Positions 2,790 through 23,746 of a stretch of DNA of 24,815 nucleotides are shown one piece after another (the first letter of the stretch is position 1; every line of letters begins with the position of its first letter). The position numbers and the translations under genes were made by a program. The stretch lies in the IMG/VR virus record IMGVR_UViG_3300043478_000039, positions 1-24,815 of that record; one strand, written 5' to 3'. The notes beneath the pieces are model-generated. The model saw only the letters and a program-made list of their open reading frames with translations. It had not been told where the DNA came from and did no database searches. Origin of the DNA: a virus. Taxonomy: Duplodnaviria; Caudoviricetes.

Positions 2790-4082
2790 CTACTGGGAGA
2801 CCCCCGGCTGCGCCGCCGTGACCGCCAGCCTGACGTCCTGCGGCCACGCCTCCGGCGGGATGCCGGCGGCGATCAGCGCCTGACCGATCTGCTGGCCGTT
2901 GCCGCCCTGCTTGATCATCTGCGATGCCTGCATCAGGTACTGCTGCTGCTGGCCGGGATCGACCTGGCTGTTGCCGGCTGCCGGCGTCGCGGCCGCTGCG
3001 GGATCGGCGGGCGCGTTCGAACCCATCATCGGCCCGCTCGGCGCGACAGCGGCAGGCGCCGCCTCGCCGGGCAGCATGTCGCCTTCAGCGGCATAGTTGT
3101 CGTTGTCCACCGGCGCTGAAATGCCGAGCTGCTCGTCGGCGGGCGCTGCGTCGACCGCCGCGTCGGTGGTCGGCGTTTGCGCCGCCGGCTCGACGATCTC
3201 GCCGGTCGACGGATCGACGGCGACGCTCGGCCCGGTGGACGCCGGCTGGCCACGCCCGGCGAAGCGCTCGTCGACGGTCTGCTTGGCCAATGCCTCCTTC
3301 TCGTCGGCGCTCATCTCGGAGATATCAGGGTCGGTGAGCGCGCTGTCCTCGATGCGCTTGCGCTCCTCCTGGATGGCGTTCTGGTACTGTGCGTCGGTGA
3401 GCGCCCCGGTGCCGGTGCCGAGCTTCTTGTCGAGCTGCTTCTTGCGGCCGTAGGTGTCGACCTCGCGATCGGCCTTGGCCTGCTCGGCCTCCTGCTGGAT
3501 CTGGTACTCGAAGGCCTGCCGCGGGTTGATGGTCGAGGCGAAGAACTTGGGCAGGTCGGCGGTGGCGACGTTGCGCGTCACCTCCTTGCCGTCGGGCGTG
3601 GTGTAGCCGAGGCGATATCCTGTCACCGCGCCGGCCGCCTCGTCGTAGTATTCGGCGATGCTCATCTTGCCGTCGGGGCCGTAGCCGGAGGTGTTGGCGG
3701 CCTTCTGCATGTCCTTGAGCGCACCCTCGACGTCGCCCGCGTGGAACTTGCCAAGGCCGCTGGTGAACAGCTTGGCGGCCTTCTTGGTGCTCGACGCCTC
3801 GGCCCAGTCGGTCCACGCCTGCGCCTTGTCGGGGTCGCCGGCCTCGAGGTACTTGTTGGCGATCTGCGGCACCAGCTCGTTGGTGTAGCGCGCCATGAAG
3901 TCGCCCGGCTCGGCCTTGCCGGCGGCGACGTCGGCGTCGAACTGCTTCTTGCCGGCGCTGGTGATGCCCTCGACCGAGCTTTCCAGGCGCCGCTGCTTGC
4001 GGACCTCGTGCAGCTGCTGGCCGATCTGAGCGCCTTGGCTGAAGCCCTGCATGAATGATCCGAGTGCGATCCCCAGGCTCAT
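2790..4082 (-). CDS. Putative internal virion (ejection) protein, 430 aa
   Basis: ORF with SD GAGGA and an ATGA overlap with the upstream stop. N-terminus MSLGIALGSFMQGFSQGAQIGQQ, then a helical Ala/Gln/Glu-rich body. Position between an ejection-type gene and the giant protein. Confidence 0.7.
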   Translation of the reverse strand: MSLGIALGSFMQGFSQGAQIGQQLHEVRKQRRLESSVEGITSAGKKQFDADVAAGKAEPGDFMARYTNELVPQIANKYLEAGDPDKAQAWTDWAEASSTKKAAKLFTSGLGKFHAGDVEGALKDMQKAANTSGYGPDGKMSIAEYYDEAAGAVTGYRLGYTTPDGKEVTRNVATADLPKFFASTINPRQAFEYQIQQEAEQAKADREVDTYGRKKQLDKKLGTGTGALTDAQYQNAIQEERKRIEDSALTDPDISEMSADEKEALAKQTVDERFAGRGQPASTGPSVAVDPSTGEIVEPAAQTPTTDAAVDAAPADEQLGISAPVDNDNYAAEGDMLPGEAAPAAVAPSGPMMGSNAPADPAAAATPAAGNSQVDPGQQQQYLMQASQMIKQGGNGQQIGQALIAAGIPPEAWPQDVRLAVTAAQPGVSQ

Positions 4083-5215
4083 GCCGCCATCCTCCTCTCA
4101 GTCGACTTCTTGTGCTTTTTGCCGCCCATCGATTTGTGCAGCGTGCTGACCTTGTGATCGAGATCCTGCACCGCCTTCATGGTGATGCCGATGGCGTCCT
4201 GAAGGTTGATGGTGCCGTTGTCCTTCTGTCCCGTCGCCTTGGCGTAGTGCGTCGACATGGTGCCGGTGTGGCCCTTGCCGCCGTCGCCGGCGCCGGGCTT
4301 GTAGTCGAACTTCGAGACCGGCATCTTCTTGATCGCCTTGAGGCCATCGCCCTTCTTGACCGGCTTGATGTTCTTCTTCACCGCCGGGTCCGACATGGCG
4401 ACGATGCCAGCGATCGAGCCGAGGCCCGACGCCAGGTCAGCCATGCCGGCGTTCTTGGTCTGCTGTTCCTGCGCCCACCCCTGCATCTGGATGCCGTAGG
4501 TGTTGTTGAGCACGTTGGCGCGGTTGAACTGACCGGCCTGCGCGCCTGAGAAGGCCGGGTTCATATTCTGCGCCGGCATCATGGAGATCTGCTGGTTGTT
4601 GGCACCCAGCCCAACCGCCGACGAGCCGGCCGCCAGCGTCGTGCCGAGGTTGGCGCTGGAGCGGCCGAGCGCGGTGTTGCCGAGGTCGATCGCAGCACCC
4701 CGCATGGCGTCGCCACGCGCCCGCTCCTGCGCCCGCGCGCCGGTCGCAGCGCCGGCGCTGGCCAGTGCCGTGCCCAGCTCGCCGGCCCGCGCCGCATTGG
4801 TGCTGCGGCCGGAATCGGGGCGGATGCCGAGCGACGACGCCTCGCGCTGCGCCGTCTCGCGGGCCTGCGCCGATGCCGTGCTAACGCCGGCGACGGCTTC
4901 CGCCGCGCGGTCCTCCTGCTGCTGCTTGTTGCCGGCGACCTTGGCGTCGGCGAAGAACTTGTCCTCGATGGGCTTGGCCTTGTCGGTCCAGCGGGCGCGG
5001 TCCTCCGTCGCCCACTTCTGCGACTGGTCAGCGATGCCGAGCTGCTGGGTGATGACCTTGTTGGTGAGGGTGTCCAGGCCCTCCTGCCGCTTCGACGACT
5101 TGTCGAAGGCGGTCTTGGCAAACGCCAGCCATTCTTCTCCGGTCTCCGCGCCCTTGAGGGCCGCGGCGCCGATCTGCGGGTCTGGAGAGGGTGCGCTACC
5201 ACCGCTCTTGTTCAT
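4079..5215 (-). CDS. Putative ejection/DNA-transfer protein with C-terminal intramolecular chaperone autoprocessing (peptidase S74-like) domain, 378 aa
   Basis: N-terminal KSGGSAPSPDPQIGAAA and an Ala/Gly/Gln-rich helical body typical of podovirus ejection proteins. C-terminal MSDPAVKKNIKPV...LKAIKKMPVSKFDYK...HTGTM...IGITMKAVQDLDHKV fits the SDxxxKxNI Ser-Lys dyad domain. SD AGGAG. Confidence 0.75.
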   Translation of the reverse strand: MNKSGGSAPSPDPQIGAAALKGAETGEEWLAFAKTAFDKSSKRQEGLDTLTNKVITQQLGIADQSQKWATEDRARWTDKAKPIEDKFFADAKVAGNKQQQEDRAAEAVAGVSTASAQARETAQREASSLGIRPDSGRSTNAARAGELGTALASAGAATGARAQERARGDAMRGAAIDLGNTALGRSSANLGTTLAAGSSAVGLGANNQQISMMPAQNMNPAFSGAQAGQFNRANVLNNTYGIQMQGWAQEQQTKNAGMADLASGLGSIAGIVAMSDPAVKKNIKPVKKGDGLKAIKKMPVSKFDYKPGAGDGGKGHTGTMSTHYAKATGQKDNGTINLQDAIGITMKAVQDLDHKVSTLHKSMGGKKHKKSTERRMAA

Positions 5216-5233: not shown

Positions 5234-5252
5234 CCGGCACGTCCTGCGCTGG
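5234..5252 (-). promoter_or_regulatory. Conserved leader element copy 3: GGA-loop hairpin (CsrA-type site) overlapping an SD/AUG-sequestering hairpin (5213-5241)
   Basis: Core 14-mer at 5237-5250 is identical to copies at 9263-9276 and 22489-22502. mRNA CCAGCGC-AGGAC-GUGCCGG. Alternative stem CGUGCCGGGUUUC-CAG-GAGACCUGCCAUG pairs 12 of 13 positions, including G-U. Confidence 0.75.
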
Positions 5253-6042: not shown

Positions 6043-7997
6043 GGCTGCCTCTTGAGGTCGTCCATGGTCTTGGCCATGGTGATGCGATCGATGCGCTGGT
6101 CTGTCAACACGTCGATCTCCCAGGTCCGCGCCTTGAAGCCGGACGGCAGCCGTACCGCCTTGTTGGCGACGCCGATCGCCGCGACCAGCTTCTTGTCGGC
6201 CCACACGCCGACGGTCAGCGTTCCGCCCTCGGCCTTCGGCAGCGACGACGGCACCGCCGCGGCGGTCTGCGCGAACGCCCCGATCAGCGTCTGCGCGCCG
6301 CCGCTGCGGCGCGGCATCGGCAGCAGCTTGTCGCTGGCCAGCGGCGCCACGTTGATGAACTGCTCGGCGCGCACCTCGGCCGGCGGCGTGGTGATCGGCG
6401 CCAGGTAGCCGTAGCCGATCGGCGTCGAGGCGAGGTCGCCGTCGAGCGAGATGTACTCGCCAGACGGATACTGATCCTGGATCCAGTCGAGGTTGGTCTC
6501 CTGCCGCTCCTCCTCTTCCGCGTCCTCCGCCTCCTGGTCGAGCGGCAGGAAGTCGTCGAGCGTGTCGATGACGATGGCGCCATAGTTCTCGGAGTACGGC
6601 AGCACGAACTCCTTCGACTTCCAGTACAGCCGCTTGCGCCGCGCGAACGGCGAATCGAAGCGCCAGATCTCGGCCACCCCGACCGGCGCGTAGTAGAGCG
6701 CGCTGTCCTCGACGCTGTAGACGGCGGCGCGCGCGAAGATGTCGCTGCGGATCAGGAAGTTGGGGTTGGCGAGGTCGAGCAGCAGGGCGCCCTTCTCCTC
6801 GACCTCGTCCTGCGGGAAGTAGTCGTAGAAGGCGACATAGCGGCCGTTGATCTGGGCGGCGATCATCTGCTGCGGCCGCAGCTCGAGCCAGCCGTCGCGG
6901 TTGAAGATGGCATTGCTGGCGATGTTGATGGCGCCGGTGGCGGTGGCCATGACGATGCCTTCGTTCGACCCCCACGCGACGGCGTAGCCGAGGTCGACGA
7001 CCGAGCGCTTGTTGATGCACGGCAGCAGCTGCTCGATCTTCTGGCTGGTCATGTTCTCGGGCAGCGTGCCCGACACCATGTACGGATGCGCGTCGGTGGC
7101 CACGATGATGGCCATCGCCATGGCGCCGAGGCCCATCACCTCGTGCTCGAAAGTCAGCGAGTACTTCTCGGGCCAGGCGTGCGGCCGGTACGGCTCGCAG
7201 AAGTACAGCTTCTTCTTCTTGCCGCCGATCGGCACGGCGCCGCCGAACGCCGCCATCATGCCGTTGGGCAGGACGATCAGGCCCTCAAGGTCGTCCGGCG
7301 GTGCGCTCCACGTCACCGAGGGACACGGCTCGGCGATCGCGCTGACGGCGTTGTTGTCGGCGTAGTTGCCGTTCGAAGCGGTGCGCTCGGCGATCAAGTA
7401 GAGGCCGGTGCCGGATTGCCCGCTCTGCGATCGGTAGATGCGCTGCTTGTAGGGGAAGCGGACGCTGGTCGGGGCCGGGTCGGTGGGCGGCGCGGCGAAG
7501 CCGGACAGCGTCACTGTCATGCCGGGCATCCAGTTGACCGGCAGCGAGGCCGGCGCCGGCTCGCTCTCCTCGCCGAGCGCGCTGACGAAGGTGTAGGAAT
7601 AGACGCGCGTGGTGACGTCGCCGGAGCCGCCCGCCGGAGAGCAAACCAGCGCGCCGGTCGGCCGCGCGATGCCGAGGTCGTAGACCTGCGCGCCGATGCG
7701 GATCTTCGGCTTGCCGTCGCCGGTGTAGTAGAGGCGGTCCTCGGCGATCGGGCCGGGCGCGGCGTGGACGACGTTGTCCCAGCCGATCCAGGCGTTGTTG
7801 TACTTGTAGATGGTCTTCCAGTTGATGCTGCCGGTGACCGCCACGTCGAGCGACGGCTGCCGCATCGGCGTCAGGCCGCCGTCGTCGAGGCGGACGTCGC
7901 GGGCGCTCTGGGCGGCGGTCTCGGGCATCAGCCGCGGCAGGATGCGCGGCTGCTCGCCGGTGAAGGCTGTCAGGATGATGGGCGGGGCTGCGGGCAT
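6039..7997 (-). CDS. Tail nozzle / tail tubular protein B-like (P22 gp10-type head-closure) protein, 652 aa
   Basis: True start ATG 7997 (TGATG overlap): MPAAPPIILTAFTGEQPRILPRLMPETAAQSARDVRL. Beta-rich, with RVYSYTFVSALGEESEPAP, LYFCEPYRPHAWP, PCINKRSVVDLG and YWKSKEF motifs of the kind seen in podovirus nozzle proteins. Confidence 0.7.
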   Translation of the reverse strand: MPAAPPIILTAFTGEQPRILPRLMPETAAQSARDVRLDDGGLTPMRQPSLDVAVTGSINWKTIYKYNNAWIGWDNVVHAAPGPIAEDRLYYTGDGKPKIRIGAQVYDLGIARPTGALVCSPAGGSGDVTTRVYSYTFVSALGEESEPAPASLPVNWMPGMTVTLSGFAAPPTDPAPTSVRFPYKQRIYRSQSGQSGTGLYLIAERTASNGNYADNNAVSAIAEPCPSVTWSAPPDDLEGLIVLPNGMMAAFGGAVPIGGKKKKLYFCEPYRPHAWPEKYSLTFEHEVMGLGAMAMAIIVATDAHPYMVSGTLPENMTSQKIEQLLPCINKRSVVDLGYAVAWGSNEGIVMATATGAINIASNAIFNRDGWLELRPQQMIAAQINGRYVAFYDYFPQDEVEEKGALLLDLANPNFLIRSDIFARAAVYSVEDSALYYAPVGVAEIWRFDSPFARRKRLYWKSKEFVLPYSENYGAIVIDTLDDFLPLDQEAEDAEEEERQETNLDWIQDQYPSGEYISLDGDLASTPIGYGYLAPITTPPAEVRAEQFINVAPLASDKLLPMPRRSGGAQTLIGAFAQTAAAVPSSLPKAEGGTLTVGVWADKKLVAAIGVANKAVRLPSGFKARTWEIDVLTDQRIDRITMAKTMDDLKRQP

Positions 7998-9241
7998 CAG
8001 GCGAACTTGATGATCTTGTTGGTGATGGTGGTCGGCTGCAAATTGTTGTGCGGCTTGTCGCCGCCGATCGAATCGGTGGTCCCGGTCAGGTTGTGGATGT
8101 GGTCGCCCTGCCCGGCGGGGGTCAGCGGGTTGTCGGTGTAGAGGACGCCGCTGCCGGCCTGGAACCCGAAACCGCCAGCCGTGCTGGCGATGCGGCCGGA
8201 GATGGTGTGCTGGTGGTCGCCGCCGCCGGTGGCGGTCTTGCCGGCCGCCGACAGGGTGTGGACGTGCGCCGATATCTGCAGGTCGGTCAGCGTGTGCAGC
8301 ATGTGGCCGCCGGAGGTGCCGAGCTTGGTGCCGTCCATGTCGTTGATGGTGTCGGCCGACAGCGCGATGCGGCCGGCGATGCTGCCGCCCATGTCGTCCT
8401 GGCCGGCAGTGACGCGGCCGCGTAAGTCGGGAACGCTGAAGGTGCTGCCGCTCGGCAGGCCCCATAGCGAGCCGGTGCCGCCGAGCGCCTGGAACAGCTT
8501 GTCGTAGGGCGGGGAACGCGACAACGACTGTCCGTAGCAGAGTAGCCAGCCGGCCGGCGCCGCCGGTCCGCCGTAGTCGACGATCGAGCCGATCGGCACG
8601 CCGGTGTCGGTCATGTTGAGCTGATACCAGGACTGCCAGCTGCCGTTGTCGAGGCGCCGCGCCCACGCCGCCGTCGAGTTGATCTGCCTCCACTCCTGGT
8701 ACTGATAGAGCGAGTTGTAGACGTCGGCCCACAGGTAGCCGTACACGCCCGCCACCGGCGCGTTGGTGGTCGTGGTGTTGGCGAGGTAGTGGCCGGTCAC
8801 GGTGACCGAGTTGGCATTGTTGCTCGGCACCGGCTCCGTCACCGAGCGCAGGCGCACCGGCAGCACGGTCTCGGAGACCAGGCCGGTGGTCAGCAGGCCG
8901 GCGTCGGCGAGCAGCGCGGCGATCGCCGCCGCCGTCAGGCGGACGTCGACACGGGCCTGGTTGGCGGTGAACGGCAGCGCCGTCGTGCCCTCCGCCCATG
9001 CGTTCGGCGCCCCACGCGGCATCTGCATGGTCAGCGTCGCGCCAGCCCGGCCGATGCACTTCATGATCTCGCGCTGGCCGGCGGCGTCGACGACGACGAC
9101 AGGGAACCAGTCGTTGGACCCCGCCGCGATGACCGGGAACTTGGCTGCGTCGGCGGCCGCGACGTTGAGCGATGGGTCAGTGCTGGTGATGCTCGACGCG
9201 AGGATCGAGGTGGCGTTGTTGGTCAGCCTGACAGTGCCCAT
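7997..9241 (-). CDS. Tail fibre with N-terminal anchor, knob-like domain, tail collar domain and HxH needle, 414 aa
   Basis: Collar motif VPIGSIVDYGGPAAPAGWLLCYGQSLSR...TFSVPDLRGRV. HVH/HQH/HIH motifs and C-terminal GGDKPHNNLQPTTITNKIIK as in T4 gp12-like/microcystin-dependent family proteins. N-terminal ~110 aa is paralogous to the fibre at 13524-15512. Confidence 0.9.
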   Translation of the reverse strand: MGTVRLTNNATSILASSITSTDPSLNVAAADAAKFPVIAAGSNDWFPVVVVDAAGQREIMKCIGRAGATLTMQMPRGAPNAWAEGTTALPFTANQARVDVRLTAAAIAALLADAGLLTTGLVSETVLPVRLRSVTEPVPSNNANSVTVTGHYLANTTTTNAPVAGVYGYLWADVYNSLYQYQEWRQINSTAAWARRLDNGSWQSWYQLNMTDTGVPIGSIVDYGGPAAPAGWLLCYGQSLSRSPPYDKLFQALGGTGSLWGLPSGSTFSVPDLRGRVTAGQDDMGGSIAGRIALSADTINDMDGTKLGTSGGHMLHTLTDLQISAHVHTLSAAGKTATGGGDHQHTISGRIASTAGGFGFQAGSGVLYTDNPLTPAGQGDHIHNLTGTTDSIGGDKPHNNLQPTTITNKIIKFA

Positions 9242-9260: not shown

Positions 9261-9277
9261 CAGCACGTCCTGCGCTG
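9261..9277 (-). promoter_or_regulatory. Conserved leader element copy 2: GGA-loop hairpin overlapping an SD/AUG-sequestering hairpin (9239-9267)
   Basis: mRNA CAGCGC-AGGAC-GUGCUG (6-bp stem). Alternative stem CGUGC-UGGCUUU-UUG-AGGGCUA-(UC bulge)-GCAUG covers GAGG and AUG. Confidence 0.75.
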
Positions 9278-15799: not shown

Positions 15800-16503
15800 G
15801 CGATCACCTTGTGCTTTTGCCGAACGAGCACGACAGGCTCGCGCGGGATGACTATGCGGCGGTGCTGCACCTTGACGGCGAACAGCCTGCTCTCGCGCGG
15901 CAGCACCATGAGCGGCGTCTCGCGGACCGGCTCCTCGGCGACCTGCATAGCACGGTCTTCGAGCGGCACGACGACGCGGCGAACCCACTCCCAGCGGCCG
16001 ATGAACTCGCTGTCGAGCTGGCCGTCGAGCTGCAGCGCGAAGGCCATGTGGCTGTCGACGCCAAAGGCGCCGCTGATCGATTCGACAGCCTGCTCGAAAG
16101 CAAAGTCGTGCCCGGCTTCGAGGCCGATCGCCCGGCCCAGCCCTGTCGTCTGGCTGAAGGCCAGGCTGTGGTCGGCAGCCATGGCGCGCATGCGGCCGAG
16201 CACCAGCGCCTGGTTGACAGTGAAGGTATGGCTCGCCGCCATGTCCTTGACGCGGATAGTGCTTGCCTGCTGGTCGAAGCGGAACGAGTGGCTGGCCGCG
16301 ATGCTCTTGACGCGGCCGCTGTCGATGAGCTGCGTGAGGCGGAACGAGTGATCGGCGGCGAGGCCCTTGATGCCGCCGGTGTTGAGCAGCTGGGCGAAGG
16401 CGAACGCATGGCTGGCCTCGACGTCGAGGACAAAGGCGCTGCCATCGATCTCGTGGACATCGATGTCGTTGCCGTTGATTGCGCCATGGTCGTCGATGTC
16501 CAT
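15796..16503 (-). CDS. Hypothetical virion protein with 20-aa tandem repeats, 235 aa
   Basis: Six full repeats plus one partial of xAAxHxFxFxQxxxxGxxxx. Coupled to both neighbours. Confidence 0.75.
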   Translation of the reverse strand: MDIDDHGAINGNDIDVHEIDGSAFVLDVEASHAFAFAQLLNTGGIKGLAADHSFRLTQLIDSGRVKSIAASHSFRFDQQASTIRVKDMAASHTFTVNQALVLGRMRAMAADHSLAFSQTTGLGRAIGLEAGHDFAFEQAVESISGAFGVDSHMAFALQLDGQLDSEFIGRWEWVRRVVVPLEDRAMQVAEEPVRETPLMVLPRESRLFAVKVQHRRIVIPREPVVLVRQKHKVIA

Positions 16504-16504
16504 G

Positions 16505-16921
16505 TCATATGACCGACTCGATCAGCTTGCCGATCCTGATCGCTGCCTCGTCGGTCGGCGAGAAAGTGCGCGGCGTGGTCAGCGGGCCGTAGATCAGCAT
16601 GTTGCCGGCGACCTGCGCGTCCCACACCGCGGCGTGGGAGATGGTGATGTCGCCCGGCCCGTCCATCGGGCCGTAATTCATCTGCTTGAGGTTGTTCGTG
16701 GTCTTGGCGGCAGCCGCGCCAAAGCCGGTGTCGACCGCACCGCCGACGGCGGGGTCCTGCCGCAGGTAGGACGGCCATGCGGCGAGCGAGATCTCGTTGG
16801 CGCCGCCGACGCCGGGGTCGGCGATGTGCAGCGAGACGAAGACGCGGGCGGGTGCCGCGAAGGCGACGCCGCGCAGCAAAAGGTCGAGCATCTTGTTACC
16901 GGCATAGGTCGAAGCTGGCAT
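16505..16921 (-). CDS. Conserved phage tail-associated protein, 138 aa (real start inside the 380-aa track ORF)
   Basis: TGATG start at 16921. MPASTYAGNKMLDLLLRGVAFAAPARVFVSLHIADPG...ANEIS...YLRQ...TISHAAVWDAQVAGNMLIYGPL is a recognisable phage structural family pattern. Confidence 0.8.
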   Translation of the reverse strand: MPASTYAGNKMLDLLLRGVAFAAPARVFVSLHIADPGVGGANEISLAAWPSYLRQDPAVGGAVDTGFGAAAAKTTNNLKQMNYGPMDGPGDITISHAAVWDAQVAGNMLIYGPLTTPRTFSPTDEAAIRIGKLIESVI

Positions 16922-18260: not shown

Positions 18261-18971
18261 TCATCCCGCCAAGGCTTTCGCCTGCCCGACCCAGTTGTCA
18301 CGCTCGACGCGGCCGTTGAGACCCAGCTCGTCGTCGATGGCCTTGGCCTTCTTGGCCGACCACTTGGCGATCTGGCGGGCGTCGTCGATGCCCATGGCTT
18401 CGAGCTTGGCAGCGGTGCCCTTGCCGATGCCGTTGATCTCGGTCAGCGGGATCTTGCCAACGTCTTCGCCGTCGTCGCCGGCGTCATAGCCCTCCGTCTC
18501 GTCAGGATCCTCGTCGGGCAGGTCTTCCTCGACCACCACCGGCTCGGTGAAGGTGAAGTCGAGCGGGTCGGTCACCGCCAGGTCGTAGCGGCGCACGTAG
18601 ACCGGCAGCGTGACGGCGCCCCATCCGAGCGACGGCTTGACGATGGTGGTGATCTCCTCGGTCGACACGAAGACGATCGGCTCGGGCTGGCCGGCGAAGA
18701 AGATCACCGAATCCGGGCCGAACCCGGCGCCGAGGCAGCGCAGCACGAAATCCTCGCCGCCCAGCTCGGCGGTCGCCGGGTCGAGCGACGTCAGCGTCAG
18801 CTCGTCGGGGTCCTTCAGCACGACGCGGTAGTGGACGACCGACGTCAGCAGCTGGACGTGGCGCTCGTCGTGCACCGTCGCGACGGCGCGTCCGAACTCG
18901 TCGGGGATGAAACTGTAGGTCGTGCCACCGACCTCGGTGACAGTAGGCCCGTAGGTGCATTGAACCAGCAT
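18261..18971 (-). CDS. Virion-associated protein with IPT/TIG Ig-like domain and C-terminal helix-hairpin-helix domain, 236 aa
   Basis: LTLTSLDPATAELGGEDFVLRCLGAGFGPDSVIFFAG...FVSTEEITTIV (IPT-like), an acidic linker, then LTEINGIGKGTAAKLEAMGI...QIAKWS...IDDELGLNGRVERDNWVGQAKALA (COG3743-type HhH). Confidence 0.8.
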   Translation of the reverse strand: MLVQCTYGPTVTEVGGTTYSFIPDEFGRAVATVHDERHVQLLTSVVHYRVVLKDPDELTLTSLDPATAELGGEDFVLRCLGAGFGPDSVIFFAGQPEPIVFVSTEEITTIVKPSLGWGAVTLPVYVRRYDLAVTDPLDFTFTEPVVVEEDLPDEDPDETEGYDAGDDGEDVGKIPLTEINGIGKGTAAKLEAMGIDDARQIAKWSAKKAKAIDDELGLNGRVERDNWVGQAKALAG

Positions 18972-19113: not shown

Positions 19114-20193
19114 CTAACGTCTCACTCCAACGAATTTCTTGACCACCGCCTTGGCGCTGGTCGGGCGGGCGCGGCTGGGCAGCGGCGTGCTGGTGCCTGG
19201 GCGCACGATGCCGGCGACACCCGCCGGCGGCGCTGCCGAGCGGCGGTCGGCGGCAGCCGACGCGACCTTGGCCTTGCTCATCGCACCGGCGATCCGATCC
19301 TTGGCGCTGAAGGTGTTGGGTGCCGCGGCAGTGGCGCCACCGGCCTTGACCACCGTGCTCGGCAATGGCTTCAGCGGCGCGTTCGGTATAGGTTTCATCA
19401 GCGACGGCTGCCGAGTGGCTGGCGCCGGCCGCGGCACGTTGCCGAACACCTTGGTCTTGGGCAGCGTGTAGCGGCCGCCGACCGGCGGCTTCACGGCGGC
19501 GACGGCGACACCGCCGCGCTCGCCGGCCTTGTCGGCCTTCGCCGAGCTGGTCCTGGCCTGCGCCATGCGCTTGTCGAGTTTCTGCTTGGCCGTGGCCGGC
19601 GCTCCCGCCGTGACGACGGCCGGGCGCGGCTTGAAGCTGGAGCGCGTCTCGGACCCGGCAGCCAGCTTGTCCTGGCCGGACCGCATCGTCTTGAACTGGC
19701 CGCTGGGCGGGTTCGCCTTGGCGGCCTCGGCGGCGCGATTGTCGCGGCGTGGCGACGGCGTTGGCTTCGGTGCGGTCTTGGGCAGTGCGCTGACGCTGGC
19801 CTTGCCGGGCGTCGGGCGCTTGGCCGGGGTGGCCGTGGTTTTGTTAGGTAGCGCGGATGCGCTGGCCTTGCCGACTGGCCGCTTGCCCGGCGTCGCCTTG
19901 GTCTTGTCAGGCAGCGCCGATGCAGCGGCGCGCGCCTGCAGCGTCGGGGCGCGCGACGGCGCGTTCGGCTCCGGGCGCTTGCCGACGGCGGCGACGGCCT
20001 TCTTGCCGCCCTTCGACTTCGACGCGCCGGCCATTTTGGTGCTGTAGCTCTTGCCGCCGAACGAGAAGGTCTTGGTCTTGGGGTTCTTGGACGCGACAGC
20101 GAACGCCTTGTCGAACGCCTTGCCGCCCTTCGAGCGGCCTTTCGGCTTCTTCGAGGCAGCTAGCTGTGCCTTGGTTCCCACGAACAGACCCAC
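19114..20193 (-). CDS. Lys/Ala/Pro-rich, highly basic low-complexity protein, 359 aa
   Basis: Coding-like codon use (AAG, GCC). Very few acidic residues. Internal SALPxKTxATPxKRPxxGKA repeats. GTG start is uncertain. Confidence 0.75.
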   Translation of the reverse strand: MGLFVGTKAQLAASKKPKGRSKGGKAFDKAFAVASKNPKTKTFSFGGKSYSTKMAGASKSKGGKKAVAAVGKRPEPNAPSRAPTLQARAAASALPDKTKATPGKRPVGKASASALPNKTTATPAKRPTPGKASVSALPKTAPKPTPSPRRDNRAAEAAKANPPSGQFKTMRSGQDKLAAGSETRSSFKPRPAVVTAGAPATAKQKLDKRMAQARTSSAKADKAGERGGVAVAAVKPPVGGRYTLPKTKVFGNVPRPAPATRQPSLMKPIPNAPLKPLPSTVVKAGGATAAAPNTFSAKDRIAGAMSKAKVASAAADRRSAAPPAGVAGIVRPGTSTPLPSRARPTSAKAVVKKFVGVRR

Positions 20194-20205: not shown

Positions 20206-20775
20206 CTACTTGAAGAAGCCCTTGAGGCCGCTGAAATCATGGCGGGCGCCGGCGGCGGCCCGCTGCTTCTTGCTCGGGTTCGGCTTGGTGCCGGGGTCGT
20301 AGCGGACCTGCTGCGGCACGTCGCCGCCGCGCCAGCTCTGGACGCCGCGGACGGCTGCCTGCGGCTTGACGGTGGCCTGCGGCCGCGGCGTCGGCGTGAC
20401 GGTCGTGGTCTGGCGCTTGGTGACCTTCTTGCCGCCGCCGCCGGCTGGCGGAGCGACAGTCGCTGGCGACTTGATGCGGGCGTCGCGCTCGCGGATGGTC
20501 TTGACCCACGGCAGGTTCGGGTTGACGCCGCTCTCCTCGCTGCGCTTGAACTTGCCGCCGGTCGCCTTGACCGCAGCCTCTTCCTGCCCACGCGCCGACT
20601 TGACCCATGGGTTATTGGCGTCGATCTCGGACCTGTGCACCTGCTTCGGGACCGGGGTGGACTTCACCTTTGGCGGTGGCGGCGGCGCAGGCGCGTCCGG
20701 GTCGGTGCGGCCAAGGCCCGTGCCGAGAAAGCCACCACCACCGAAAAAGCCTGGGTCTTCCTTGTTCTTGGCCAT
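20206..20775 (-). CDS. Basic Pro/Lys-rich hypothetical protein, 189 aa
   Basis: Strong SD AGAGGAG before ATG. Duplicated NxPWVK motif. Confidence 0.8.
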   Translation of the reverse strand: MAKNKEDPGFFGGGGFLGTGLGRTDPDAPAPPPPPKVKSTPVPKQVHRSEIDANNPWVKSARGQEEAAVKATGGKFKRSEESGVNPNLPWVKTIRERDARIKSPATVAPPAGGGGKKVTKRQTTTVTPTPRPQATVKPQAAVRGVQSWRGGDVPQQVRYDPGTKPNPSKKQRAAAGARHDFSGLKGFFK

Positions 20776-21366: not shown

Positions 21367-22464
21367 TTACGGGTTCGGGTCCTTGGCCGCGGTGTCGATC
21401 GACAGGACGCCAAAGTCCTTGCCGTTGAACCGGGATTTCTTGATGCCCATGATGACGCCGGCCGCGACCTTCGGCTCGTTGCCGTGATCCGACATCTCCT
21501 CGGTCCAGGTGAACCGCAGCCCGCCTGTCGAGCCATAGGCGACGACACCCGCCTGCCGGCCCATGAACAGGGCACGCGCCGCGAGGATGTTGTTGCCGGA
21601 ACCGTAGTCGCTGAAGCGGATGACGTTCTCGTGGCTGTGCAGGACGACGTTGTCGATCATGCCCAACCCGCCCTTGAAGATCGGGTTGTTGCGGCCTTCG
21701 GCCTGCGCCGCGGCCTTCTGGATGTCGAGCCAGCCGCCGGTGTCGGAGACGCGAAGGTCGTACTCCTGGAACGGCGACATCAAGAGCACGTAATGCTGCT
21801 CGCCATCGATGTTGATGGCGATCATGTTGGCGGTCGTCGGGTCCGACGCCCGCATCATCGTCGCCTTGACGGCGGCGCGCTCGATGACGACGCGGGTCAT
21901 CACGTCGCCGACCACCAGGCCGGCCTTGCCGCCGGTGCCGGGATAGATGATGTGGCCGGTGTCCGGCGCGAGGATGGCGTTGTTGGCGAAGCCCGCCCAG
22001 GTGACGTCTTCGATGTAGTCCTGGTTGACGCCGCGCGAACCGGACAAATAGATGAAATTGATCTGGTCGATGTACTGCGACCAGTAATCCGACAGGCGGT
22101 CGCGGGCGATCGAGCGGATGTTGTGCAGCGTGCGCTTGCGGCTCATCTTACCGCCTGCAGAGACGCCGTGCCGCATCTGGTCGATGTAGACGGTGTCGGT
22201 GAAGAACCGCAGGTTCTCTTCCTTGCCCTCGAGCCGGTTGTCGCCGACGGTGGGCTTGTTGCGCAGCTGCACCGAGAGGTCGAAGCTGATCTGGTCACCA
22301 GCATCCGATTCGAGATCGGTGAGGCGCTGGATGACGCTGTTGTCGCTCTCCGACACGAACTTCCTGTCGAAGTAGCCCTTCGTCAGGATGTCGAGGAATA
22401 GCTGACCAGACCAGCGCTTGACGGCCTTGGGATCGCCGAGAGGGATATTGGTGGGACCAGCCAT
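21367..22464 (-). CDS. Major capsid protein, N4-gp56 family (DUF4043-like), 365 aa
   Basis: SD GGAGG before ATG 22464. DPKAVKRWSGQL...IQRLTDLESDAGDQISFDLSVQL...LEGKEENLRF...IDQMRHGVSAGGKMSRKRT...NNPIFKGGLGMIDNVVLH...KKSRFNGKDFGVLSIDTAA. Confidence 0.95.
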   Translation of the reverse strand: MAGPTNIPLGDPKAVKRWSGQLFLDILTKGYFDRKFVSESDNSVIQRLTDLESDAGDQISFDLSVQLRNKPTVGDNRLEGKEENLRFFTDTVYIDQMRHGVSAGGKMSRKRTLHNIRSIARDRLSDYWSQYIDQINFIYLSGSRGVNQDYIEDVTWAGFANNAILAPDTGHIIYPGTGGKAGLVVGDVMTRVVIERAAVKATMMRASDPTTANMIAINIDGEQHYVLLMSPFQEYDLRVSDTGGWLDIQKAAAQAEGRNNPIFKGGLGMIDNVVLHSHENVIRFSDYGSGNNILAARALFMGRQAGVVAYGSTGGLRFTWTEEMSDHGNEPKVAAGVIMGIKKSRFNGKDFGVLSIDTAAKDPNP

Positions 22465-22487
22465 GACGTGCAACCTCCAGGGGGGTC

Positions 22488-22502
22488 AGCACGTCCTGCG
22501 CT
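22488..22502 (-). promoter_or_regulatory. Conserved leader element copy 1: GGA-loop hairpin overlapping an SD-sequestering hairpin (22465-22495) of the MCP gene
   Basis: mRNA AGCGC-AGGAC-GUGCU. Its GACGUGC is perfectly complementary to GCACGUC immediately before the AUG, enclosing GACC/GGUU pairing over the SD GGAGG. Confidence 0.78.
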
Positions 22503-22510
22503 TTTGCGAA

Positions 22511-22539
22511 GAAATACTTCGAAACGGTGGATTGAGCAA
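22511..22539 (-). promoter_or_regulatory. Possible sigma70-like promoter for the capsid operon (TTGCTC-N17-TATTTC)
   Basis: 17-nt spacing in an AT-richer gap. The predicted start would fall in the A-run just 5' of the GGA hairpin. Match to consensus is only partial. Confidence 0.35.
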
Positions 22540-22559
22540 GCTGGTGCAGCCAGACCGCG

Positions 22560-22584
22560 GAAATTCGCCAAAAATGCGAATTTC
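22560..22584. repeat. Perfect 9-bp inverted repeat (GAAATTCGC-N7-GCGAATTTC) at the end of the CsrA-like gene; hairpin or operator
   Basis: Seen directly in the sequence. No U-tract follows on the minus strand, so it is not a canonical intrinsic terminator. Confidence 0.6.
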
Positions 22585-22798
22585 AGCCGACGCGCTGCAC
22601 CATTTCGAGAACGCGGCGCGGCGGCCCGACGACGCCGTAGACATAGCGCGGCGGCACCAGGCCGTCGACGAGGCAGCGGATCGGCAGCTGGCTGAAGAAC
22701 GACAGCTTGGTCGCCGAGCCGCTCTTGTACTCGACGCGCACCACCGCGACGTCGCCGATCTCGACGGCCTCGCCGGGCCGCATGGTTTTTGAAAACAT
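22583..22798 (-). CDS. CsrA/RsmA-like small RNA-binding protein (divergent), 71 aa
   Basis: MFSKTMRPGEAVEIGDVAVVRVEYKSG aligns without gaps to E. coli CsrA [27 protein letters not shown] (recalled sequence), identical at M1,T5,R7,G9,E10,I14,G15,D16,V20,V22,G27. The canonical APxxVxVxREE C-terminal motif is not conserved. Confidence 0.7.
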   Translation of the reverse strand: MFSKTMRPGEAVEIGDVAVVRVEYKSGSATKLSFFSQLPIRCLVDGLVPPRYVYGVVGPPRRVLEMVQRVG

Positions 22799-23746
22799 CT
22801 ACGCCCCCTGCAGATAGGCTTCACGGTCGGTCGGCGACAACCGCGCCAGCGCCCGCTCATAGTCGACGCCTTTCAATTTCTCCAGGCGCGCGAACTTGTT
22901 GACCGCGGTGACCGGCGTCTGGTCGGAGGCCGGCAGATTGTTGAGCGACGGTGGCATCTTGCGTCCGTTCCCGTTGAGCTTCTTCTTGGCCTTGGCCTTC
23001 GGCTTGGCGCCCTCGGCGGCGGGCGGCTCGCCCAGCTCGGCGACGATCAGCCTGTGCGCCTCGACCAGGATCTTCGGGTCGGTCGGGTTGGTGCTGGCCG
23101 CCTGCAGCTTCTTGACGGTGGTGTCGAGCAGCGTGTGGCGCATCGAGCCTTCGACGTACTCGGTGTGACTGGCCAAAAACAGCGGGATGGTCGAGCCGTA
23201 CCAGGTGTCGGCGACCAGCTTGCCCGACATCTTGGCCTGCGTGCGCTTGTCCTTCAGCTCGTCCAGCTCGGCAACCAGTGCCTTCGATTGGTCGCGCATC
23301 TCCTTGGCGGTGATCTCGCCGTCGTCGAACTTGACGGCGATCTCGTCGAGCGCGGTGTCGATGGCCGTGAAGCGCGCCTCCTCGGCGGCGGTCAGGCGGT
23401 AGGCCTGCACCGGCGCCGGGGCGGCGGCGATCGGCTCGGCCTCTTCCTCTTCCTCGGCCTCTTCCTCTTCCTCGGCCTCTTCCTCGGCTTCGGGTTCCGG
23501 CTCTTCCTCTTCCTCGGGTTCCGGCTCCGGCTCCGGCTCTTCCTCCGGCTCCGGCTCTTCCTCCGGCTCCGGCTCGTCGGCCTCGGCGACCGGCGCGTCC
23601 TCGGCATCGCCGGCCGCCGCCTTGGCGATCTCGGCGTCCTCGGCGGCCAGCTCGGCCTCAAGCTCGGCCTGGTACTCCTTCAGCCCGATGCGTTCCTCTT
23701 CGGTGAGGAGATCCAACTCCTCGTCCGTCACCTTCAATCGTGCCAT
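22799..23746 (-). CDS. Capsid scaffolding protein, 315 aa
   Basis: Between portal and MCP. SD AGAGGA before ATG 23746 (MARLKVTDEEL). Extremely acidic N-half, coiled coil, and C-terminal PPSLNNLPASD...FARLEKLKGVDYERALARLSPTDREAYL typical of these scaffolds. Confidence 0.85.
   Translation of the reverse strand: MARLKVTDEELDLLTEEERIGLKEYQAELEAELAAEDAEIAKAAAGDAEDAPVAEADEPEPEEEPEPEEEPEPEPEPEEEEEPEPEAEEEAEEEEEAEEEEEAEPIAAAPAPVQAYRLTAAEEARFTAIDTALDEIAVKFDDGEITAKEMRDQSKALVAELDELKDKRTQAKMSGKLVADTWYGSTIPLFLASHTEYVEGSMRHTLLDTTVKKLQAASTNPTDPKILVEAHRLIVAELGEPPAAEGAKPKAKAKKKLNGNGRKMPPSLNNLPASDQTPVTAVNKFARLEKLKGVDYERALARLSPTDREAYLQGA
23435..23582 (-). repeat. Glu/Pro/Ala low-complexity tandem repeats (EPEPEEE, EAEEEE) in the scaffold gene
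   Basis: Repeated ctcttcctccggctccgg and ctcttcctcttcctcggc units. Confidence 0.9.

Follow-up and report, generated by a model that had tools for sequence, protein, structure and literature searches.

The leader of the major capsid gene in this phage probably acts as a two-state RNA switch, in which a CsrA-like protein encoded by the phage holds a conserved hairpin (H1) and translation is on; we give this reading a probability of roughly 0.6. At the level of the sequences, complementarity, repeats, conservation and gene linkage are all present; the two folds and the order in which they form are predicted. The feature is real and conserved, and it is broader than the capsid gene alone.

The window, i.e. 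the whole stretch of 24,815 nt that was analysed, is the late region of a Bcep22-like podophage with its genes on the minus strand. It has the portal-scaffold-csrA-capsid order with a PF13252 capsid by which such phages (Lessievirus and allied genera) are recognized, and its capsid protein is 62-68% identical to those of PBC5, POI1126, Bcep22 and JC1. The capsid gene is followed by adaptor, tail and internal virion genes. The genes around the leader are the following:

23757 to the window end, minus strand: portal (PF16510)
22799..23746, minus strand: acidic protein between the portal and the CsrA-like gene (phrog_8246), a putative scaffold judging by its position
22583..22798, minus strand: diverged CsrA-family protein of 71 aa (phrog_8397), candidate operator of the switch
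21367..22464, minus strand: major capsid protein of 365 aa (PF13252, phrog_334)

Two Lys/Ala/Pro-rich basic ORFs with no Pfam or PHROG match (19114-20193 and 20206-20775, minus strand) follow the neighbour of the capsid gene, and a head-region ORF (18261-18971, minus strand) has a C-terminal helix-hairpin-helix with a weak match to Pfam IMS_HHH (E 3e-5).

Within the capsid leader, the elements are arranged as follows:

22488..22502, minus strand: H1 hairpin, AGCGC-AGGAC-GUGCU, the conserved motif, predicted ON-state element and likely protein-binding site
22497-22493, minus strand: H1 loop
22489..22495, minus strand: GACGUGC, 5' strand of the OFF clamp, made of the 3' part of the H1 loop and the H1 3' arm
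22471..22487, minus strand: inner hairpin H2 (-4.4 kcal/mol), predicted in both states, a weak cover of the Shine-Dalgarno (SD) sequence
22474..22478, minus strand: SD sequence GGAGG
22465..22471, minus strand: GCACGUC, the anti-H1 strand between SD and AUG
22464-22462, minus strand: capsid AUG

An earlier note on this DNA had pointed out that GCACGUC, right before the capsid AUG, is the exact complement of GACGUGC, and the minus strand reads just so. Over the 41-nt leader stretch, the 7-bp clamp and the inner stem reach -17.9 kcal/mol (z -2.88, 1 of 200 shuffles as good); minus the six 5' bases, z becomes -4.04 and none of 200 shuffles is as good. With flanking sequence the OFF stem extends to the UG of the AUG, and the H1 5' arm pairs with UGGCU across the start codon. 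H1 alone is worth -4.7 kcal/mol, and the clamp state is favoured by 5.9-7.9 kcal/mol over four context lengths. The same note spoke of mutually exclusive hairpins, which is correct for the outer clamp, since it excludes H1, but not for the inner stem (-4.4 kcal/mol), which is compatible with H1. This GACC/GGUU stem can be present together with H1 and so plays no part in switching, which is left to the outer clamp alone. The stem was also said to cover GGAGG, and it does cover the last GG, but the first GG finds its partner in CC, and the A bulges out.

The predicted consequence concerns the start site as a whole. Opening positions -14 to +3 of the capsid leader costs 15-16 kcal/mol in the free RNA versus 8.7-9.4 kcal/mol when H1 is held, and for the SD by itself the cost falls only slightly (7.0 to 5.8 kcal/mol), the SD in the predicted ON state still lying inside a weak hairpin. 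All 17 other starts compared in the window (one of which is placed off its start codon) are cheaper to open than the free capsid leader, at 3.3-12.9 kcal/mol. In predictions for growing transcripts, H1 is the prevailing fold (P 0.93-0.99) as long as the 3' end lies short of about 22467; beyond that point it collapses, and clamp closure precedes the emergence of the AUG.

Related leaders were gathered by capsid homology (80 viral and 19 genome loci) and from 17 annotated phage regions; three loci with truncated capsids and two with <45 nt upstream were excluded, leaving 112 with the window included. H1 precedes the capsid gene in 98 of the 112 loci by score, corresponding to 69 distinct leaders, although these loci share descent and counts across them are not independent events. 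Of the 14 loci with no scored H1, three (L010, L019, L082) have variant hairpins that the score missed and 11 have none. The distance from H1 to the start codon stays between 22 and 45 nt in the 69 leaders. Both sides of the H1 stem have changed in four of its five pairs, a level attained by 0 of 500 shuffles (47 distinct contexts); this signal comes mostly from the outer pair, the rest of the core being nearly invariant, with G-U and G-C alternating. A G-U pair is needed in 60 of the 69 cores, and pairs outside the 5-bp stem receive no support in the related leaders. Like a canonical CsrA site, H1 is a short hairpin that presents a loop (about 4 bp is typical of such sites; the H1 stem has 4-5 bp, with covariation). 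The canonical ANGGAN hexaloop with its invariant GGA is not what the 69 leaders present: their loops are mostly AAGA, AUGA, AAGAC, AGGAC or AUGAC, with the consensus A-[A/U/G]-G-A-(N) over 4-5 nt, and GGA occurs in 14 of them, including the AGGAC of the window, and is absent from 55. An Rfam search over 22300-22700 gave a best E of 2.2, far below gathering score. Two loci (L042:3015 and L051:297) show an additional H1-like hairpin immediately 5' of the first one and within the final part of the CsrA-like gene; the pair could serve both surfaces of a dimer. In L003 and L004 a gene of 118-140 aa sits between the CsrA-like gene and the capsid leader, and the leader with its promoter-like box is kept.

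Across the 69 distinct leaders, holding H1 lowers the median cost of opening the ribosome site from 13.5 to 6.6 kcal/mol; the saving is >2 kcal/mol in 57 leaders and <=2 kcal/mol in 12. The median gap between clamp and H1 is 7 kcal/mol. The probability of H1 is <0.1 in 61 of 69 leaders and >0.5 in four, which favour H1 unaided. Default silence of the capsid mRNA, as the earlier note had proposed, is thus what the computed energies predict, both here and in most relatives.

Comparison of the sequences points to a clamp that is conserved as structure and not as sequence. The perfect 7-bp clamp abutting the AUG, together with the GGUU inner arm, is found only in the window, L002 and L003; in L001, L004 and L005 the clamp is retained but lies 1-2 nt more distant from the AUG, and GGUU is missing. 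RNAalifold on eight near leaders returned H1 only and no clamp, since the register of the clamp shifts from phage to phage. For 11 leaders of a second clade it gave an OFF fold, in which 1 of 11 pairs has changed on both sides. Since column-wise covariation of the clamp is weak, duplex permutation was used as support: native H1-to-RBS duplexes average -9.6 versus -7.1 when permuted (p 2e-4), and the pairing with the own RBS beats the cross mean in 58 of 69 H1 segments, but only 35 of the 69 duplexes reach z < -2 against shuffled RBS. In the L056-L093 clade the capsid begins with Met-Arg (AUGCG/GUGCG), so that the H1 5' arm pairs across the start codon and coding sequence appears to take part in the clamp.

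A search in the other direction began with the 5-nt-loop motif followed by GGAG and ATG and yielded 120 loci from 5 of the 64 parts of IMG/VR. The capsid loci among them were chosen by eye and then confirmed, 25 of the 120 downstream proteins being scanned. Capsids of phrog_334 follow 13 of the 120 loci, and these 13 include every one of the 11 loci that have a CsrA-like gene upstream. A drop of >2 kcal/mol was found at 10 of the 13 capsid loci versus 5 of the 107 others (Fisher p 7e-9; 4e-8 minus one contig already used), and two of these five precede an endolysin and a phrog_8003 gene. As the drop is rare at non-capsid motif matches, the motif alone does not create the clamp.

The candidate partner of H1 is encoded just upstream. 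The 71-aa protein of the window matches phrog_8397 ('CsrA-like regulator', E 5e-5), and the profile of its family, built on a 41-member alignment, matches RsmE in the PDB (E 3e-10) and eight other CsrA chains. Pfam CsrA (PF02599) is found in 21 of the 41 members and not in the window protein taken alone. By sequence, then, the window protein is a diverged CsrA-family member. The RNA-binding residues of CsrA include L4 and R44, according to the available text of the review PMC7652899. In RsmE numbering, R44 is kept in 5 of the 41 proteins, T5 in 5, R6 in none and L4 in 9; the window protein has neither R44 nor L4, the alignment near residue 44 being uncertain. A family-specific K25-S/T26-G27 turn is present, with K in 38 of 41. 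With R at position 44 in just 5 of 41 proteins, belonging to the family does not by itself imply RNA binding. The monomer model has a pLDDT of 73. A dimer model of residues 1-52 scores 0.66 versus 0.02 for the best control, likely through likeness to solved CsrA dimers, against a mark that 20 of 30 solved pairs and 1 of 23 single chains attain. Its runs agree in 100% of contacts with a pLDDT of at least 82, and the modelled inter-chain contacts join residues 3-6 with 30-34 and 38-43 with 12-14.

Gene and motif tend to occur together. Among 41 capsid clusters (80% identity), 31 contain H1 together with the gene, 8 lack both in the neighbourhood of the capsid gene and 2 contain H1 alone, counts that are not phylogenetically independent. 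One of the H1-only clusters comprises PBC5 and Atu_ph08, where the CsrA-like gene is present elsewhere; in the other, Mwe-JY07, a small ORF at the usual csrA position looks alike by eye and misses the profile. Empty profile searches in incomplete records were not counted as gene absence. The whole records of 933W, D56, AP1, phiA008 and G007 contain no CsrA-like gene and at most one stray motif match. phiC725A, one of the eight that lack both, carries its CsrA-like gene on the downstream side of the capsid gene; its capsid leader has no copy of the motif, and copies stand instead before the later genes 0044, 0045 and 0049. This F116-like phage has two csrA-type matches, the diverged one at L117:10687-10893 and a second at 16391-16528 of the record. 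PTXU04 was considered as a supporting relative and rejected, its csrA being canonical in type and located among lysis genes, with no motif match in the genome.

The earlier note tied the feature to the capsid gene. It is real there, but the same element also heads other late genes. The 13-mer motif GCGCAGGACGTGC occurs in three exact copies in the window versus 0.015 on average in shuffles, and every copy stands 21-24 nt ahead of a virion gene; besides the one in the capsid leader, the copies are:

9263..9275, minus strand: second exact H1 copy, 21 nt before the tail-fibre gene (7997-9241)
5237..5249, minus strand: third exact H1 copy, 21 nt before a virion-protein gene (4079-5215, phrog_8003)

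At these two copies, holding H1 has an effect of 2.5-2.7 kcal/mol in short context, which is gone with 80 nt of upstream sequence. Related loci contain 59 further motif matches, 49 of them on the strand of the capsid gene; 19 stand before an SD and a start, and 40 have no such ORF. An SD-led ORF begins 19-38 nt after eighteen non-capsid copies; a drop in opening cost is seen in 16 of 19 scored cases, one of the 19 being a capsid gene. With the reversed pattern as a control, an SD-led ORF follows in 0 of 16. In cultured phages, H1 precedes the endolysin gene in PBC5, Atu_ph08, PEp14 and POI1126 and the DarB gene in PBC5 and POI1126, and internal virion and phrog_8003-type genes are also candidate targets; in cultured JC1 the sole convincing copy is that of the capsid gene. 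In PBC5 (L102:3863-3960) and Atu_ph08 the capsid and endolysin genes diverge from a single short intergenic region that contains a separate H1 copy for either gene. PBC5 also has an exact copy with the integrase AUG in the loop (L102:961-972), a single case that may be due to chance; binding of the protein there would block translation, not free it.

If transcription starts close to H1, the hairpin gains a particular role. A sigma70-like promoter candidate lies just upstream:

22511..22539, minus strand: -35 box TTGCTC (22539-22534), 17-nt spacer, -10 box TATTTC (22516-22511)

This candidate would start the leader about 4 nt before H1, its -10 box ending 9 nt before the hairpin. A strict consensus scan found 0 promoter sites near the leader, and a test for the -10 box alone gave 21 of 67 leaders versus a shuffle mean of 19.3, no enrichment. 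The pattern TTG[AC]nn-N17-box, 9-18 nt before H1, occurs in 25 of 67 leaders versus a shuffle mean of 0.9, the pattern having been defined after looking at the same sequences in which it was counted. It is found in 25 of 30 leaders of the near clade, in 0 of 37 elsewhere and at 1 of 18 non-capsid copies, and a spacer of 17 is preferred (25 matches vs 11 or fewer for other spacers within 14-20). If the promoter is real, H1 is the first structure of the capsid mRNA.

The mechanism that we propose would begin at this host-type promoter 9 nt before H1, giving a leader of about 40 nt. H1 is predicted to fold first and, when no protein is bound, to be displaced once GCACGUC has been made, the resulting stem covering SD, spacer and AUG (OFF). 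A CsrA-like dimer, made late from the portal-scaffold-csrA unit, would bind the A-N-G-A(N) loop and hold H1, leaving the weak hairpin alone on the SD (ON). The median gap of 7 kcal/mol may exceed the binding energy at equilibrium, so capture must probably be co-transcriptional. The H1 stem and loop are conserved yet unstable, which argues that something must hold them. Moreover, holding H1 frees the start site and a gene with an RNA-binding fold travels with it, hence the reading as activation. As in ON switches of the ymdA or Com-mom type, a default fold that buries SD and start and an alternative fold that frees them are both found, here by computation. The same element heads tail-fibre, internal-virion, DarB and endolysin genes, where it may function alike. 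Since several late genes are so headed, they may form a post-transcriptional regulon, with structural and lysis genes silent until the late phase.

CsrA's usual mode is repression, according to the available text of PMC7652899, and the protein might bind H1 in a glgC-like manner, with one subunit seated on the upstream hairpin and its partner reaching over to the SD, to tune capsid stoichiometry or shut down late synthesis. The GGA of the window loop and that of the SD start 18 nt apart, near the bridging distance given in that text, and the exact PBC5 copy overlaps the integrase AUG. However, 61 of 69 leaders are closed even when unbound, so that no ON state is there to repress, just 14 of 69 loops have GGA and the GGA-reading R44 is mostly lost, and we consider repression unlikely. 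The scarcity of GGA, missing from 55 of 69 loops, bears equally on the idea of a real switch with another opener (the CsrA/RsmA of the host, an RNase cut in the long stem, an antisense RNA or a different phage protein), with the neighbouring gene as a passenger. This idea can draw on the GGA in the window loop, on the canonical-type csrA of other phages such as PTXU04 and on the fact that co-occurrence can reflect shared descent. It appears very improbable, since PTXU04 has its canonical-type gene and no motif, gene and motif share a different position in phiC725A and, in the available text of PMC7366521, Burkholderia hosts of such phages are described as having no chromosomal csrA.

The order of folding allows for a switch with no factor at all. 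The earlier note held that an opening factor is implied, and in favour of this the CsrA-like gene co-occurs with H1 and the partner strand covaries; but H1 is predicted to form first (P 0.93-0.99 up to a nascent 3' end at about 22467), and a metastable co-transcriptional H1 could act as a timer that gives ribosomes a short window before the clamp closes. Such a timer is quite unlikely: the clamp closes before the AUG emerges, and the conserved loop, the co-occurrence of the CsrA-like gene and their shared downstream position in phiC725A are left unexplained. H1 could also be a site at the level of DNA or transcription (an operator, a late-activator site or a pause or antitermination signal after the promoter), the clamp being secondary. 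In 25 of 67 leaders the motif does follow a promoter-like -10 box at a distance of 9-18 nt, and its core is highly conserved in sequence. Against this, G-U pairs in 60 of 69 cores and compensatory changes fit an RNA and not a DNA palindrome, 49 of 59 further matches share the capsid-gene strand, H1 stays 22-45 nt away from the start codon and its RBS partner covaries with it, all of which makes a DNA-level role very unlikely.

The switch held open by the CsrA-like protein thus remains our preferred reading, and it can be extended, tentatively, to a phage group in which it is widespread: an orthogonal CsrA, re-tuned from GGA to A-N-G-A, may unlock several separately started late mRNAs together. 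The nascent 5' hairpin would then be captured on capsid, tail, ejection/DarB and endolysin mRNAs, and it is conceivable that the late programme is timed after transcription. The system could, just as tentatively, replace a late transcriptional activator, be insulated from the Csr/Rsm sRNAs of the host and perhaps repress the PBC5 integrase.

The phage csrA homologues described so far are thought to manipulate the host, according to the available text of PMC9144972, PMC11879866 and PMC7366521. The present reading gives the Bcep22-type branch a phage-internal target and a predicted direction, and if true it provides a role for a phage gene until now listed as accessory. It may also explain why capsid and lysin are silent in temperate phages with host-type late promoters. 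Few cases of CsrA activation have been worked out, as stated in the available text of PMC7652899, and a compact, repeated activator site would therefore be a clean model. If orthogonal to host CsrA, a leader of about 40 nt and a protein of 60-70 aa would be usable as a synthetic ON switch.

In the accessible text of PMC9144972 and PMC7366521, the Bcep22-like csrA-type gene is a moron of unknown role, and no target site or mechanism for it was found there. The word 'phage' is absent from PMC13443453. Neither Rfam nor the matches listed by literature searches contained a description of an H1 leader. The csrA-like genes of JC1 (gp47), PEp14, Itty13, Parlo and Skulduggery represent the same gene at the same scaffold-capsid position. 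In the available text of PMC11879866, where phage CsrA is said not to have been tested before, knockdown of the csrA homologue gp28 of PTXU04 shrinks plaques; since gp28 has canonical-type residues and lies among lysis genes in a genome that does not have the motif, this is not evidence for the H1 system.

The protein resembles CsrA/RsmA/RsmE (PF02599; RsmE-hcnA, PDB 2jpp) in its profile match and a likely target hairpin of 4-5 bp closed by C-G, and a homodimer in which strands of the two chains touch is predicted for it. It differs in that T5, R6 and R44 are mostly lost, a K25-S/T26-G27 turn is present, GGA is rare and activation is predicted. Com of phage Mu, as far as the available text of PMC6483171 goes, is a small RNA-binding protein of a phage, encoded next to its target; much as proposed here, it contacts a hairpin loop close to the initiation site and melts structure at the start codon. 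Com, however, is a zinc finger that acts on the mom mRNA, whereas the protein described here has a CsrA fold and capsid, tail, DarB and endolysin genes as candidate targets. A close parallel to the proposed mechanism is the activation of E. coli ymdA (Renda et al. 2020, PMC7492729; PMC7652899), where, in the available text of these sources, a CsrA-fold protein binds the leader and frees an SD that is buried by default in a hairpin. With ymdA, two GGA sites are involved and one hairpin is destabilized (available text of PMC7492729). The phage leader, unlike ymdA, has a dedicated alternative hairpin with an A-N-G-A(N) loop at the head of several genes, a protein mostly devoid of R44, and both parts encoded by the phage.
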